Below, one piece after another: positions 8,815 through 25,010 of a stretch of 25,010 nt of DNA. A program made the position numbers and the translations under genes. The stretch's first letter is position 1. Each line of letters starts with the position of its first letter. The stretch comes from a virus: the UHGV virus genome UHGV-0271208. The stretch is one strand, 5' to 3'. Under the pieces are notes generated by a model that was not told the DNA's origin, searched no databases, and saw nothing but the letters and a program-made list of their open reading frames with translations.

Positions 8815-9141
8815 TTATAACCGGCCATGCGTGCCGGAATTCTTATCTCTGGTCGCTGGGAATTTTTTGTAAAGCGTAGATATCCCAACATCATAAATTA
8901 TGGCAACCCTCCGGCGCGATTCCCCTGCCGCTATTAACCTACCCGCCTGCGCCCATTGTTCTGGTGTAAGTTTGGGACGTCGTCCACCAATTCGTCCCTG
9001 TGCGCGAGCAGCTTCCAGGCCAGCTTTTGTTCGTTCAACAATCAGTTCTCGCAGGGTCTGAACGTAAGGCGAATCCTGGGAGTCGGTTCTTACTGCATCC
9101 TTTTCACTGGGGCTTGATGGGCCCAAGCGTGGATCACTCAC
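8815..9141 (-). pseudogene. Truncated serine DNA invertase (Cin/Gin/Hin/Pin family); C-terminal HTH part only
   Basis: 108-aa ORF with RELIVERTKAGLEAARAQGRIGGRRPKLTPEQWAQAGRLIAAG...VAIIYDVGISTLYKKFPA, which matches the C-terminal half of Hin/Gin-type invertases. The ORF begins at GTG and no catalytic N-terminal domain is found in any frame upstream (9141-9524). Confidence 0.7.
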
Positions 9142-9524: not shown

Positions 9525-9935
9525 CTACTCCTCCGGCAGTTCAGGCCAGATGACATCCGGTGCGGTGCTGGTATCTGTTGCCGTCACAGCGTCGATATAA
9601 TCCAGCACAGCGTTAAGTCGGGTAGTTTCTTCTTGCGTCAGTTTACGCCCGGCCTGCAGCTTTAACTGAATCACGCTGATATTGACCATTGCTGCGTCTA
9701 ACAGCGACTGTTTTTTCTGTTCAGCATCAGCTACCAGTTCATCATGAGAACGTTCCGGAGGGAGCGGCGCAGTAAATACCCCGTCTGAATACCCCCAGCC
9801 AATTCCGGGATGCTCACTGATATCAGAAATATCAATGAGCTGCTGATTATCCGGCACTGTGAATTCAGCCTCGCCATCCCAGACAATGACATTCACAACC
9901 ATCTCATTTTCAATAACTGCATATGACGCATTCAT
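9525..9935 (-). CDS. Tail fibre assembly protein (Tfa; P1 U / P2 G-like)
   Basis: ORF 9525-9959; the likely start is ATG 9935, overlapping the fibre stop as TAATG, giving MNASYAVIENE. The C-terminal APDVIWPELPEE resembles tail-fibre chaperones. Confidence 0.85.
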   Translation of the reverse strand: MNASYAVIENEMVVNVIVWDGEAEFTVPDNQQLIDISDISEHPGIGWGYSDGVFTAPLPPERSHDELVADAEQKKQSLLDAAMVNISVIQLKLQAGRKLTQEETTRLNAVLDYIDAVTATDTSTAPDVIWPELPEE

Positions 9936-12649
9936 TATGCAAACTCCTCGATAATACAAATCCCATCAGCACCTTTCCCGCCTGTCATACTGGTTCCGCT
10001 ATAACCGGCATCGTATGCGCCACCGCCACCTGAACCATATGCCTTACCACTAACACCACCGCCAGCGCCTGCGCGTCCACCGCCCCCCCAGTACGATGTT
10101 CCGCCTTCACCGCTGACGCCGATATTTCCGGACTGACCGTCGCCACCATTTCCACCAGTGATGCTGATATCGCCAGTACTCGGCACACCTCCGTTACCGC
10201 CGTTTGTGTTTGTGGTTCCTACTTTTCCGGCACCTTCGCCACCGATAGCAATTAACGATGCGAACGAACTATAGCCGCCATTAAGGCCGTAATTTGCTCC
10301 AATACCACCGGCTCCACCTGCGCCGATAGTGACTGGATAACTATTCTGTGTCGGGGTCATTATTGAAATTATTGTTCCACCGGCCCCGCCGCCAGCACCG
10401 AAAAACGTTTCATTATTGGATATAGCCTGGCAGCCGCCCCCACCACCACCGCCACCCGTTATTGTGACCCTGATCCGTTTTGTTCCTGGGGTTGGGGTAT
10501 ACGTACCTGATGAAGTGAAAACCTGGGTATTCACCAAACGCCCAACATATCCGCTTGAATCGCTCAGGCCAAGGTTAGCAGCAGTTAAAGTAATATTTGC
10601 AGAACCATCAAACTTAACACCGTTGATAGTGCGTGCAGTCTGTAGTTTCGTTGCGGTTGCGGCATTACCGGTAGTGCTCTGATTACCTGCTTTATTCACG
10701 CCCGGCAGGTCGATATTGGCACTACCATCGAACGACACTCCGCCGATTGTGCGTGCTGTTTGCAGTTTTGTGGCGGTGGATGCATTACCTGTCAAAGATC
10801 CACTAAGAGCCACGGCACTAAGAGACTTAACACTTACATCCTGACCCCATCCGGAAACAACAACCTGACTCCACGCTGCCCAGCTTCCATTAACAACAAA
10901 GCGAACGTATATACGTTTTGTGTCGCTGTTAATCAGCGTTTGCATGTTCGCATAATCTGATCCCGTAGTCTTACGAATCGACTCTACACGAACCAAAAAG
11001 TTACCGCTTACGCCGTCAGGCTTATTGGTAATATTTGCACCACCTGCGACAGTTTTGCATTGATAGTATTTAACGGATCCAGCTTCTGTATTAGCAATAA
11101 TCAAGTCGTTTAAATCAATAGTCCGGCCGTCAATGGCTTCCGGCTCGATGGCTCCTGCTATCCCGGCACTGAATGTGGCAGCGGCTGAAAACGCTGTCTT
11201 ACCTTTGAAAGTCTGTTGAGAACTCCAGGTATTAGCTGTGCTCAACAGGGGGATCTTTTCGCCGCTGGTTCCGATTTCTCTTAAACCAAGGTATTGGATA
11301 ACAGCCAGTGTGCTTGTTTTAGCCAGGATATCGCGACCGACTGACGTTAAATCAGTCTGGGAAACAGTGTCTGTACCGGTAAAGTACGGCAATTTATTTG
11401 CGCCTGTCGCAAGACCAGCAAGCGCGGTTAAAGTTGCATCCAGAGGCTGTTTGCCTGCCAGCGCATTTGTCATTGTTGTCGCAAAGTTCGGGTCATTGCC
11501 CAGTGCTGCTGCAAGCTCATTCAGGGTATCAAGAGCTTCAGGTGATGAGCCGACCAATGCAGAGATAGCAGCTCTTACATAAGCGGTCGTAGCAATCTGC
11601 GTGTTATTCGTACCCTGTGCAGCGGTAGGCGCAGTAGGTATTCCCGTTAATGCAGGACTTGCTAAAGGAGCTTTAAGAGCCAGAGCATTGTTGATAGTTG
11701 TGCTGAAATTCGGGTCGTTATTGATCGCAGCAGCTATTTCTTTAAGCGTATCCAGAGTGCCAGGTGCACCGTTGATAAGTGCCGTTATAGCTGCCTTAAC
11801 AAAGGCTGTATTTGCGATCTGCGTGCTGTTTGTACCTTGCGCTGCCGTCGGCGCGGTTGGCGTTCCTGTCAGACTCGGGCTTTCTATTGGCGCTTTGGTA
11901 TCAGCCAGCTCTTTTACAGACTTAACGGCTTTAGGGGTAGCCGCCATTGTTTCGCTGTCGCTGTTAGTTGCGCTACTGAGCTGAACTAATCCCTTTTGTG
12001 TTGTGCTTGCATCCTGCGCCGTATACTTGCTTTTAGCCAGATCGTAGGCTTTTTTAACCGCCAGCGAACTTGCAGCGACATCACTTCTGGTACTGGTTAC
12101 AGAGTCGGAAATTTCAATGCCTATCGCGAGATCGATGCGGTCGGATACATCTATCATTTCCTTAGTAATAGCAGATACGCCAGCAGGGATATTCACCGTA
12201 CAAACAAGCAGTTCTCCATCTCCTAACTGATATGAATCGGTATAGGTTCTGGCAACAAATTCAGCCGCATGAATATGTGACGCGGTATTAACCTGATAAG
12301 AATCTTCTCCAAGGAGGTATCTTCCCTTCAGCACAATTGCATATTTCTTACCTGCGCTAAGTGCAAGAGAAATATCCTTACGCTGCTGAATAGTTACCTG
12401 GTAGAATTCACCAATATTCACTGACGCCGCGCCAGCGGTTTTATCACCATCCACTGAGGTGATTAACAGGTTCATCCCACCGCCAGGCTTAGGAAAAAAA
12501 CCGGCATAAAATCCAGGGTCAACAATTCCCCTGAATTTTCGGTTTAGCGCGGCTGACAGATATGGTTCGTGGTATTGCACATCAGCCACCAGAGCCAACG
12601 ACTCGGGTGATGGGTAAGTAACCGATGTGACAACTGTAACGTCATTCAT
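9935..12649 (-). CDS. Long tail fibre protein (P1 S-like) with Gly-rich C-terminal domain
   Basis: Contains repeated tail-fibre motifs (GLVQLSSATNSDSETMAATPKAVKSV, TGTPTAPTAAQGTNSTQIANTAFV, ALDTLNELAAALGNDPNF) and a C-terminal Gly-rich domain including GGGGGGGG. Likely start MNDVTVV at 12649 with AAGGA SD; the ORF track extends to 12736. Confidence 0.85.
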   Translation of the reverse strand: MNDVTVVTSVTYPSPESLALVADVQYHEPYLSAALNRKFRGIVDPGFYAGFFPKPGGGMNLLITSVDGDKTAGAASVNIGEFYQVTIQQRKDISLALSAGKKYAIVLKGRYLLGEDSYQVNTASHIHAAEFVARTYTDSYQLGDGELLVCTVNIPAGVSAITKEMIDVSDRIDLAIGIEISDSVTSTRSDVAASSLAVKKAYDLAKSKYTAQDASTTQKGLVQLSSATNSDSETMAATPKAVKSVKELADTKAPIESPSLTGTPTAPTAAQGTNSTQIANTAFVKAAITALINGAPGTLDTLKEIAAAINNDPNFSTTINNALALKAPLASPALTGIPTAPTAAQGTNNTQIATTAYVRAAISALVGSSPEALDTLNELAAALGNDPNFATTMTNALAGKQPLDATLTALAGLATGANKLPYFTGTDTVSQTDLTSVGRDILAKTSTLAVIQYLGLREIGTSGEKIPLLSTANTWSSQQTFKGKTAFSAAATFSAGIAGAIEPEAIDGRTIDLNDLIIANTEAGSVKYYQCKTVAGGANITNKPDGVSGNFLVRVESIRKTTGSDYANMQTLINSDTKRIYVRFVVNGSWAAWSQVVVSGWGQDVSVKSLSAVALSGSLTGNASTATKLQTARTIGGVSFDGSANIDLPGVNKAGNQSTTGNAATATKLQTARTINGVKFDGSANITLTAANLGLSDSSGYVGRLVNTQVFTSSGTYTPTPGTKRIRVTITGGGGGGGGCQAISNNETFFGAGGGAGGTIISIMTPTQNSYPVTIGAGGAGGIGANYGLNGGYSSFASLIAIGGEGAGKVGTTNTNGGNGGVPSTGDISITGGNGGDGQSGNIGVSGEGGTSYWGGGGRAGAGGGVSGKAYGSGGGGAYDAGYSGTSMTGGKGADGICIIEEFA

Positions 12650-22247: not shown

Positions 22248-22895
22248 TTACCATTCATAGGGTAAATTAAGCGCTTTTAAACCTTGCTGAAAGGTATTAA
22301 GTGAGCCGTTCTTTTGTTGTTCCATTTGCTCGCGTGCCGCTTTCTCATACTGCTCCATCCGTTGGTTATACTCTTGCAATTCCTCTGGTGAGAGGTTTCC
22401 CATTGGGGAGTTTGTACCCGGCCCCCTGGCCCGCTCTTCAAGCGTACCCTGCACGTTTTGATGGCGCATTCCTGGGGCATTTCTGATTGAGTCAATGCCA
22501 TTTCTTCCAACGTCTTCTTTATTAACGGCATTGCTCGCCACCAGCACACCCCAGCTAGGAATAGCAAAATCAGGAGCGGTTTCGCATGCCTTTACCATAT
22601 AATCGAAAGAGCTTCGATTGATCTCGTTTGCGTCGGGATTTAACAGGCGAGAATATTGATATTTAGCATTTTCGTTGGTTGCGACTTTATACAGTTCTTG
22701 CTGCACCATCGCTTCAGAAAGTTTAAGGCGTTTCATATCTGACAGTAACTTCTTGCGCATGGATTCGTCTTGACTGACAGCAAAGCCGTAAACGTGCCCA
22801 AGGTATTTCGTATAATCGGTACAAATCTCCTTTACGCTTGATGCTGCATTAACAGTCTCAGCCATAAATAATAACGGTAGTAATAGTTTTCTCAT
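22248..22895 (-). CDS. Secreted protein, sim-region-like, sharing a motif with the Sit-like protein
   Basis: ORF 22248-22922; the likely start is ATG 22895 (GGTGAGG SD), giving a signal peptide MRKLLLPLLFMAETVNA. Its C-terminal part carries NAPGMRHQNVQGTLEERARGPGT, homologous to GRGMRREVVQGTLEERARGKGT in the Sit-like protein. Confidence 0.65.
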   Translation of the reverse strand: MRKLLLPLLFMAETVNAASSVKEICTDYTKYLGHVYGFAVSQDESMRKKLLSDMKRLKLSEAMVQQELYKVATNENAKYQYSRLLNPDANEINRSSFDYMVKACETAPDFAIPSWGVLVASNAVNKEDVGRNGIDSIRNAPGMRHQNVQGTLEERARGPGTNSPMGNLSPEELQEYNQRMEQYEKAAREQMEQQKNGSLNTFQQGLKALNLPYEW

Positions 22896-22991
22896 TATAA
22901 CCTCACCTGCCTTATAACTCATTTAGGGTACATATTTTCGCCTTTAAAAAAAAGAGGTTATTAGATCCAATTGTGTATTTATTAAGCATGT

Positions 22992-23008
22992 AATGCTCTA
23001 ATAAATTT
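22992..23008 (+). promoter_or_regulatory. P1 C1-repressor operator-like 17-mer (Op51-like)
   Basis: AATGCTCTAATAAATTT is one mismatch from the recalled C1 operator consensus ATTGCTCTAATAAATTT; it lies upstream of the c4/icd/ant region. Confidence 0.6.
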
Positions 23009-23204
23009 GTATTTTTAAGTCGCGAATGCTATCTTTTCGCATCATATTGACCTTTTAATCGTTCAGGCTTATAGTTCCGCCGTCGTAGCAAATTCTGCGA
23101 CCGGGTTTAGCAGCCTGAATGTTAGTGCGGACAACCGCAGATATCCGATATTGCGGTATTTTTGTGTCCGTAAAACCGCGTTACGCCCAAATTATGGTGG
23201 GGCG

Positions 23205-23275
23205 TGATGGGGAGGCTTCGGCCTGCTGGTTTCACTAACGCCAGTCTGCTAACCCCGTCACGTCCTGCCACCTGT
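23205..23275 (+). ncRNA. c4: c4-like antisense RNA (ImmI-type repressor of icd/ant translation); boundaries approximate
   Basis: CACTAAC (23233-23239) and CTGCTAAC (23246-23253) are complementary to GTTTAGCAG / GTTAGTG pairs at 23105-23127 and 23274-23311, the second overlapping the icd-like SD. This mirrors the P1 c4 a'/b' versus a1/b1 and a2/b2 layout. Confidence 0.4.
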
Positions 23276-23322
23276 TTAGCAGCGGGTAGCAGGTTGTTAA
23301 ACCTGTTAGTGAGGCCGTAACT

Positions 23323-23544
23323 ATGGTTAATGCCAATCCTTGCGCACGCCAAGAATTCATCTGGCGTTTCTATTCCTGTAAAAAACACCACTATCACTTC
23401 GTTATCGCAGCAACAGAAGACGAAGCACGCTCTCAATTGCCTGATGGCCCCTGCATTTTTACTGCCCGTTTTTCAACTAACTCGCGCAATTCACTTAGTT
23501 ACTGGAGCCTCCCCTTCTCTGCCGACGTTCAGGGGGGTTTATGA
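23323..23544 (+). CDS. icd: Icd-like small protein (73 aa) translationally coupled to ant
   Basis: 73-aa ORF with GAGG SD 8 nt upstream; its stop overlaps the ant start as ATGA. P1 icd is also 73 codons and overlaps ant. Confidence 0.5.
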   Translation: MVNANPCARQEFIWRFYSCKKHHYHFVIAATEDEARSQLPDGPCIFTARFSTNSRNSLSYWSLPFSADVQGGL

Positions 23545-24575
23545 AAACACCTCTCGTCACCCGTAATGAAATAGCCGAAGCGATCGCCTTGCATACAATC
23601 TGTATGCCGACACGGGAGATCCCCGGCGCAATTGCCAACTATTTCATGATAACCAGGCGTTTTTATACCCGAACAGATAAGGCTGTGATCAACAGGCTAC
23701 TGATAGCCGAGATCAGGGATTATTTGATTGAACAAGGACGTCTACGTTACGCAACAGTGGCAGCAGAAATGAGAAAGGAGGCACATAGAATGACCGGTAA
23801 TAATTTAAATGTTGAAAAACCAGCACCTGTTGCTTCAGCTACGCCAGCACCAGCCCTGAATGTCATCCCCAACACCGGAGACACAATCGACAGCCAAACA
23901 TTGTTGAAGATGGTCAATGAGGCACGGAAATTATGTAGCGAAAAACCAGTTCGCAACAATGATTTCATTGCCAGAGTTAAGGATGAGCTTGAAGGAGAAA
24001 CCTACGAAATTTTCGTAGGTCAAAAAAACGGCGCAGAAATAGATATTATAACCATGACCTACAAACAAGCCCTGCGAGTTGCCGCGCGCGAGTCAAAAGC
24101 GGTCCGCCGTTCGCTGATCGACAAACTGGAAGAATTACAGCAGGCAAACTCCCCTACCCCATCGATCCCCCAAACATTACCAGAAGCCCTACGCCTGGCT
24201 GCCGAGTTGGCAGAACAGAAAATGCATCTGGAACAACAGCTGGTGGCCGCAGCACCTAAAGTCGATTTTGCCGACCGGGTATCAGTGGCTAATGGAATCC
24301 TGATCGGTAACTTTGCAAAGGTCGTTGGACTTAAGCAAAACGCCCTTTTCTCATGGTTGCGCCAGAACGGCATTCTCATGGCTTTTGGTGCGCGCAAAAA
24401 CGTACCGCGCCAGCAGTACATTAACGCCGGGTATTTCACGGTGAAAGAAGTGGTGCTGGATGATGAAAATGGCTATCAGATACGGCTGACGCCACAATTA
24501 ACGGGTAAAGGCCAGCAGTGGTTAACTCGCAAGCTACTTGATGCTGGTTTGTTAAAACCAGTAGCAATAGGTTAA
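23541..24575 (+). CDS. ant: Phage antirepressor (Ant-like)
   Basis: 344-aa ORF whose C-terminal region (FADRVSVANGILIGNFAKVVGL...RKNVPRQQYINAGYFTVKEV...QIRLTPQLTGKGQQWLTRKL) resembles antirepressor C-terminal domains; sits downstream of the operator and c4-like elements. Confidence 0.8.
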   Translation: MKTPLVTRNEIAEAIALHTICMPTREIPGAIANYFMITRRFYTRTDKAVINRLLIAEIRDYLIEQGRLRYATVAAEMRKEAHRMTGNNLNVEKPAPVASATPAPALNVIPNTGDTIDSQTLLKMVNEARKLCSEKPVRNNDFIARVKDELEGETYEIFVGQKNGAEIDIITMTYKQALRVAARESKAVRRSLIDKLEELQQANSPTPSIPQTLPEALRLAAELAEQKMHLEQQLVAAAPKVDFADRVSVANGILIGNFAKVVGLKQNALFSWLRQNGILMAFGARKNVPRQQYINAGYFTVKEVVLDDENGYQIRLTPQLTGKGQQWLTRKLLDAGLLKPVAIG

Positions 24576-24581
24576 CAAAAG

Positions 24582-24614
24582 AAAAAAACCTGCCAGCAAA
24601 CTGGCAGGTTTCTG
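24582..24614 (+). terminator. Rho-independent terminator after ant
   Basis: Stem CCTGCCAG/CTGGCAGG at 24589-24608 with loop CAAA, followed by TTTCTG. Confidence 0.65.
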
Positions 24615-24653
24615 AGCAGATCGTCCAACCCGATCTGGATCGAGTCAGAAAAA

Positions 24654-24670
24654 TTTGCTCTAATAAATTT
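24654..24670 (+). promoter_or_regulatory. P1 C1-repressor operator-like 17-mer (Op53-like) upstream of kilA-like gene
   Basis: TTTGCTCTAATAAATTT is one mismatch from the consensus and 70 nt upstream of the ATG at 24740. The flanking approx. 30 bp is also similar to the 22992 site. Confidence 0.6.
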
Positions 24671-24739
24671 CGTTTTCTAAGTGCAAAGAATCACCATTTC
24701 GAGCTGGTGATTGAAGGTTGATGCAAATTTGGAGAAAAA

Positions 24740-25010
24740 ATGCAACAAACATTCAATGCGGATATGAATATATCAAACCTTCATCAAAATGTCGATCCTT
24801 CAACCACTCTGCCCGTTATTTGTGGTGTTGAAATTACGACCGACCGCGCTGGCCGTTACAACCTTAATGCTCTACACAGAGCGAGCGGACTCGGTGCCCA
24901 TAAAGCGCCAGCTCAATGGCTAAGAACGCTGTCAGCCAAACAGCTCATCGAAGAGCTTGAAAAAGAAACTATGCAGAATTGCATAGTTTCGTTCGAAGGC
25001 CGTGGCGGCG
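24740..25010 (+). CDS. kilA: KilA-N domain protein, 5' partial (runs off the window)
   Basis: ATG at 24740 with GGAGAAAAAA upstream; open to the window end, encoding MQQTFNADMNISNLHQNVDPSTTLPVICGVEITTDRAGRYNLNALHRASGLGAHKAPAQWLRTLSAKQLIEELEKE, which looks like a KilA-N domain. Confidence 0.65.
   Translation, partial: MQQTFNADMNISNLHQNVDPSTTLPVICGVEITTDRAGRYNLNALHRASGLGAHKAPAQWLRTLSAKQLIEELEKETMQNCIVSFEGRGG

Follow-up and report, generated by a model that had tools for sequence, protein, structure and literature searches.

The window analysed here is a 25,010-nt stretch of viral DNA (UHGV virus genome UHGV-0271208). From 11.2 to 25 kb it consists of P1-like (Punavirus) DNA that is 95–98% identical to P1, P7, RCS47, and many IncY plasmid prophages; in the region of interest, matches to P1, P7, and other P1-like phages range from 95 to 99%. 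In this part, two rightward transcription units, the c4-icd-ant operon and the kilA-repL lytic replicon, are each headed by a 17-bp motif that resembles the operator of the P1 repressor C1 (Table 1).

The first unit has the layout of an immI operon, with the C4 RNA, a and b targets 5′ of icd, icd itself, and the overlapping ant1/ant2 genes. The Rfam families RF01695 and RF03163 both score above their gathering thresholds, the latter with 55.5 bits at 23069-23121. The targets a1, b1, a2, and b2 and the complementary C4 segments could all be located, and icd, ant1, and ant2 are intact ORFs. The G+C-rich hairpin between ant and the kilA promoter is likely a terminator. The window includes P53 and Op53 of the lytic replicon but ends after 90 codons of kilA, before repL and oriL, which are present in relatives. 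A simple promoter consensus scan recovered only P51b and P53as, not P51a or P53. Through identity with the annotated P1 promoters, each operator can be seen to overlap or abut a sigma-70 promoter that a bound protein could occlude, Op53 at the -10 element of P53 and Op51 at the -35 element of P51a.

Table 1. Features of the window that bear on the two operators and on the P1-like/P2-like junction
Feature	Position	Strand	Basis or remark
Truncated resolvase/DNA invertase (Cin/Hin-like); only the C-terminal HTH_7 domain, catalytic N-terminal domain missing	8815-9141	-	
Tail-fibre ORF, 904 aa; P1 S-type N-terminus, Gly-rich C-terminus of P2-like-prophage type	9935-12649	-	
224-aa ORF	22248-22922	-	Starts in P1 simA sequence, then unrelated to simB/simC
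C1 operator Op51 (Oc4), AATGCTCTAATAAATTT	22992-23008	+	Aligned with AF234172 feature; P7 Op(c4) at the equivalent place
Promoter P51a (P2c4); -35 overlaps the Op51 3′ end, -10 TATCTT at 23030-23035	23007-23035	+	Transferred from P1 annotation
TTTTT tract, 4-8 nt 3′ of Op51	23012-23016	+	Flank pattern common to most C1 operator sites
Promoter P51b (P1c4), TTGACC-17-TATAGT, 3′ of the operator	23047-23075	+	Promoter scan; coincides with P1 annotation
C4 RNA leader targets a1 (23107-23113) and b1 (23121-23128)	23069-23128	+	Rfam RF03163; mapped from P1
C4 antisense RNA gene	23190-23275	+	Rfam RF01695, 70 bits, E=5.6e-12; P1 c4 misc_RNA aligns
C4 targets a2 (23276-23282) and b2 (23305-23312), 5′ of icd	23276-23312	+	Mapped from P1 annotation
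icd, 73 aa	23323-23544	+	ORF list; orthologue of P1 icd
ant1, 344 aa; in-frame internal ant2 start at 23790	23541-24575	+	ORF list; Pfam ANT/KilAC, E=1.3e-30; P1 and P7 annotation
G+C-rich hairpin, 13 pairs, between ant and the kilA promoter	24584-24613	.	Terminator scan
Three GATC (Dam) sites at 24619, 24632, and 24638, the last within the P53 -35 TGGATC (24636-24641)	24619-24641	+	Sequence; P1 annotation
C1 operator Op53 (OrepL), TTTGCTCTAATAAATTT; holds the P53 -10 TCTAAT (24659-24664)	24654-24670	+	AF234172 alignment; P7 Op(rep)
TTTCT, T-rich tract 4-8 nt 3′ of Op53	24674-24678	+	Flank pattern
kilA, first 90 codons; continues past the window end	24740-25010	+	Pfam KilA-N, E=2e-8; P1 annotation
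Antisense promoter P53as (PaskilA), TCGACA-17-TATATT	24767-24795	-	Promoter scan; coincides with P1 annotation

The original prediction had been made from the letters of the window and a consensus for the P1 C1 operator. Both 17-mers that it named, AATGCTCTAATAAATTT at 22992-23008 and TTTGCTCTAATAAATTT at 24654-24670, are present on the plus strand, and each departs from the consensus by a single base as it had claimed, AATGCTCTAATAAATTT at position 2 and TTTGCTCTAATAAATTT at position 1. That consensus, ATTGCTCTAATAAATTT, agrees with the literature, in which it describes the 17-bp asymmetric C1 operator, copies of which are dispersed (PMC8546580). Both sites are thus 17-bp asymmetric sequences close to ATTGCTCTAATAAATTT, as P1-type C1 operators are. 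A search of both strands of the whole window at up to three mismatches returned these two sites and no others; the third-ranking site has four mismatches, and dinucleotide shuffles of the window lead one to expect 0.14 matches at the same threshold. The description of the sites as preceding the ant and kilA units holds in that both lie on the plus strand upstream of rightward genes. Direct adjacency to ant does not hold, as AATGCTCTAATAAATTT heads the c4-icd-ant operon and lies ~550 bp before ant1. Stated exactly, Op51 stands at the head of the entire c4-icd-ant operon, and Op53 at that of the kilA-repL lytic replicon.

Pairwise alignments gave both sites a name. AATGCTCTAATAAATTT aligns base for base with protein_bind 48140-48156 of the P1 record AF234172, the monovalent C1-controlled operator Oc4 (former Op51), which controls c4; TTTGCTCTAATAAATTT aligns in the same way with protein_bind 49810-49826, the monovalent C1-controlled operator OrepL (former Op53), which controls kilA and repL. 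The same record annotates the promoters P2c4, P1c4, and PkilA, the Dam sites, and PaskilA. Both 17-mers, and ~70–100 bp on their 3′ side, are identical to P1; since the 17-mers match, their single-base departures from the consensus are native to P1 and not peculiar to the window. The P7 record (AF503408) annotates operators Op(c4) and Op(rep) at matching positions, so that both window sites are positional orthologues of experimentally defined P1/P7 operators. By sequence identity, then, the two 17-mers almost certainly belong to a P1-like (Punavirus) prophage as its operators Op51 and Op53, at which C1 acts in the lysogen, with c1 located outside the window. The identification itself is not new: these are ordinary P1 elements, already known, and the interval from Op51 to Op53 is covered to at least 80% in 439 PLSDB plasmids.

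A tblastn search of the window with P1 C1 found no C1 homologue (best E-value 2). To follow the repressor beyond the window we used NZ_CP103660.1, the complete replicon closest to it, as a proxy; the two are 99.8% identical over 22960-24760. The c1 of this replicon, annotated as 'phage repressor protein C1' at 69020-69871, encodes a protein 99.6% identical to P1 C1 and lies ~50 kb from the interval. The scan for motif and c1 that had been proposed as a check on the original prediction was carried out on this relative; besides c1, it found 18 matches to ATTGCTCTAATAAATTT at up to three mismatches, compared with 0.33 in shuffles, and most of these are intergenic and precede known C1-controlled genes. 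Neither a cognate c1 nor a set of dispersed operators is located in the window, and both are located on NZ_CP103660.1. With c1 present and the motif well above background frequency in this relative, neither of the two outcomes that would have spoken against the prediction applies there, and the results support the claim that a C1-type repressor is encoded outside the window. For the replicon from which the window derives we infer c1 from the relative, because the window spans a P1/P2 junction and the element is possibly incomplete.

The biology of P1 provides the frame for what the two operators may do: C1 binds its operators and occludes the promoters that they overlap, and P51b is constitutive. 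Binding of C1 and C1-dependent repression have been demonstrated for P1 sequences identical to those of the window (AF234172 GenBank notes; PMC9948254), and Op53 overlaps P53 and represses kilA/repL (PMC9948254). By identity with these sequences, C1 would be expected to bind the window sites as well. In a lysogen, C1 made from the immC region, ~45–50 kb away, would occupy each asymmetric 17-bp site. At Op53 it would cover the -10 hexamer of P53 and shut off kilA-repL transcription; because this hexamer lies inside the operator, bound C1 is predicted to block kilA-repL and thereby to keep the lytic origin oriL from firing. At Op51, C1 would shut P51a, the upstream promoter of c4-icd-ant1/ant2, through the overlap with its -35 element. 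Transcription from P51b, which the operator does not reach, should continue to yield C4 antisense RNA; by pairing with a2/b2 this RNA would block icd/ant expression and keep antirepressor synthesis off. Inactivation of C1 by Coi or Ant would open both units. A search by sequence found no solved structure of C1.

The C4 recognition elements of the window combine two types. The a elements are P7-type, with TTAGCAG pairing to CTGCTAA in the C4 segment at 23233-23252, and the b elements are P1-type, with GTTAGTG pairing to CACTAAC in that segment; all three copies of each element co-vary. This co-variation suggests that the P1/P7 hybrid C4 likely specifies a third immI immunity specificity. The same hybrid combination of a and b occurs in plasmid pMB5646_3.

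A second mosaic feature lies at the left edge of the operon. Similarity to P7, RCS47, phi456, SJ46, and JL22 starts at 22994, which is position 3 of Op51, and the DNA upstream is unrelated in those phages, indicating that the operator forms a mosaic boundary and delimits the conserved immI module on the left. Upstream of it, the P1 superimmunity (sim) genes are replaced in the window, as they are in pMB5646_3. The 224-aa ORF found there has a weak PTPlike_phytase match that falls below the Pfam cutoff.

The resemblance between the two sites extends beyond the 17-mers on one side. As had been noted from the letters of the window, the ~12 bp that follow also align, with agreement at 8 of 12 positions between GTATTTTTAAGT (after AATGCTCTAATAAATTT) and CGTTTTCTAAGT (after TTTGCTCTAATAAATTT). 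Agreement of 8/12 or better occurs in 0.8% of random AT-rich 12-mer pairs from the window, a figure obtained post hoc. The 12 bases upstream of the two 17-mers do not align (5/12).

To place this flank among other C1 operators, we aligned those motif matches of NZ_CP103660.1 that do not overlap one another, 16 in number. Each of the positions +21 to +25, 4–8 nt 3′ of the 17-mer, is T in 12–13 of the 16 sites; the information content of this T-tract is ~0.8–1.2 bits per position, equal to that of operator positions 12–17, and no position of the upstream flank of these 16 sites has comparable conservation. As a control we scanned IMG/VR for the exact 17-mer, which returned mostly orthologous P1-like sites plus chance hits, and took 27 distinct chance copies from contigs that are not P1-like. 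The mean number of T residues in the five positions is 3.9 at operator sites and 1.85 at chance copies (Mann-Whitney p=7e-6), and the enrichment persists when Op51 and Op53 are left out (p=2.8e-5).

Two explanations of the tract in terms of known elements were considered. A promoter element was rejected: at P51a the tract occupies the spacer, whereas at P53 it comes right behind the -10 element, near the start site, and its position relative to the promoters thus varies. For the vestige of an inverted second operator, such as bivalent operators have, reverse-complement similarity reaches 6.7–6.9 of 17 at offsets 17–18 over a background of ~4.7, with some offsets that overlap the operator being equally good. 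A tentative reading of the conservation is that the textbook 17-bp C1 operator is incomplete and that the T5 tract 3′ of most sites is a functional part of it that has gone undescribed; we hold this to be possible rather than probable. Such a tract might set the minor groove or the bend of the DNA that monomeric C1 recognises, possibly through its basic C-terminal tail, or it might be the point of contact by which the corepressor Lxc (Bof) stabilises C1 on the operator. The T-tract is the only point of the analysis that is mildly new, and it could refine the operator model of a repressor that lacks a solved structure.

The two 17-mers could also resemble operators for other reasons. Because the motif is AT-rich, both might be chance matches without a regulatory role, and 2 of 100 dinucleotide shuffles of the window do contain two matches at up to three mismatches. 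However, each site has one mismatch, both lie in intergenic promoter regions, and both are base-for-base orthologues of P1 and P7 operators; the 18 motif copies on NZ_CP103660.1, where 0.33 are expected, argue in the same direction. Judged by orthology, coincidence is in practice already refuted, and we assign it virtually no probability. The extended similarity, 17-mer plus ~12 bp, might instead stem from local duplication of a promoter-operator cassette, to which the agreement of 8/12 downstream bases (p ~0.008) would be well suited. Yet the similarity ends after ~12 bp and is missing upstream, and the geometry differs, with the operator placed over the -10 element at P53 and at the -35 element at P51a. 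In addition, most of the other C1 sites of NZ_CP103660.1, which are unrelated, have the T-tract at +21 to +25 as well, so that the flank similarity is general to C1 sites and gives no sign of duplication, which we regard as highly improbable.

The left-hand part of the window is of different origin. Over its first 8.9 kb it is 93.6% identical to Salmonella phages SEN4/SEN5; this stretch is a tail module from a chromosomal P2-like prophage and has genes for a VasI-like protein, gpD, sheath, tube, tape measure, and gpU. The remnant of a DNA invertase sits at the P2/P1 junction, and this truncated gene and the tail-fibre assembly gene that follow the P2-like module are identical to those of such prophages. 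P2-like and P1-like DNA are fused inside the tail-fibre ORF at 9935-12649. No GTDB representative genome contains the exact 40-mer at the junction, and no record of the 904-aa tail-fibre protein was found. For gpU, the tail-fibre assembly protein, and R, the matches were confined to P2-like prophages or P1-like plasmids of the ordinary kind. Some P1-like plasmids bear the same fibre end and assembly gene, so the junction is either a real recombinant formed through shared sequence or an assembly chimera; in other words, it could be a true co-integrate or a product of assembly.

This junction inside a tail-fibre gene is what would favour a third account, in which the sites are true operators by descent that have been orphaned: a P1-like fragment lacking c1 and fused to a P2-like prophage, with nothing to bind the sites and with kilA and ant silent or decayed. 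Against this, every gene of the P1-like 14 kb is an intact ORF, and no damage is seen in the operators, the promoters, or C4 and its targets. Decay would be expected of an element that lacks C1, given that kilA and ant harm P1 when they are not repressed. The junction, moreover, is possibly an assembly artefact that arose via shared tail-fibre sequence. We consider orphaned operators improbable and retain Op51 and Op53 of a C1-repressed P1-like prophage as the preferred reading.

Op51 (immI) and Op53 (lytic replicon) are textbook elements of P1 immunity, found in hundreds of sequenced P1-like plasmids, and the biological importance of the finding is small. Its value lies in annotation: the right-hand 14 kb of the window can be marked as a P1-type prophage, presumably kept silent by a C1 encoded elsewhere, whose control regions for immI and the lytic replicon are intact.

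Comparison with related phages defines how far this operator sequence reaches. Phage D6 (MF356679.1), a P1-like plasmid prophage, has a similar organisation, with a c1-like gene, icd, anti-repressor genes, and repL. However, its C1 (345 aa) is only ~21% identical to that of P1, and no P1-type 17-mer with fewer than four mismatches was found in D6. Phage D6 is thus uninformative when used to check the operator and the T-tract independently. The lack of P1-type 17-mers implies that D6 uses a different operator sequence and, together with its divergent C1, that the operator sequence described here is specific to the P1/P7 group. Within this group, P7 differs at one of the two sites: its Op(rep) is identical to Op53 of the window, whereas the 17-mer at its Op(c4) is TCTGCTCTAATAAATTT, and homology with the window starts only at operator position 3.

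P1 itself is the closest match at both sites. At immI, AATGCTCTAATAAATTT is identical, and identity is 100% over 22992-23078, from the operator through P51b. The order of operator, P51a, P51b, a1/b1, c4, a2/b2, icd, and ant1/ant2 is shared, while Ant1 has 344 aa in the window and 347 aa in P1, and the DNA upstream of Op51 encodes the 224-aa ORF in place of simB/simC. At the lytic replicon, TTTGCTCTAATAAATTT is identical, the -10 element lies within the operator, and one mismatch is present in 161 bp. The three Dam sites, the -35 element, P53as, and the kilA start are all kept, with no notable difference between the window and P1.
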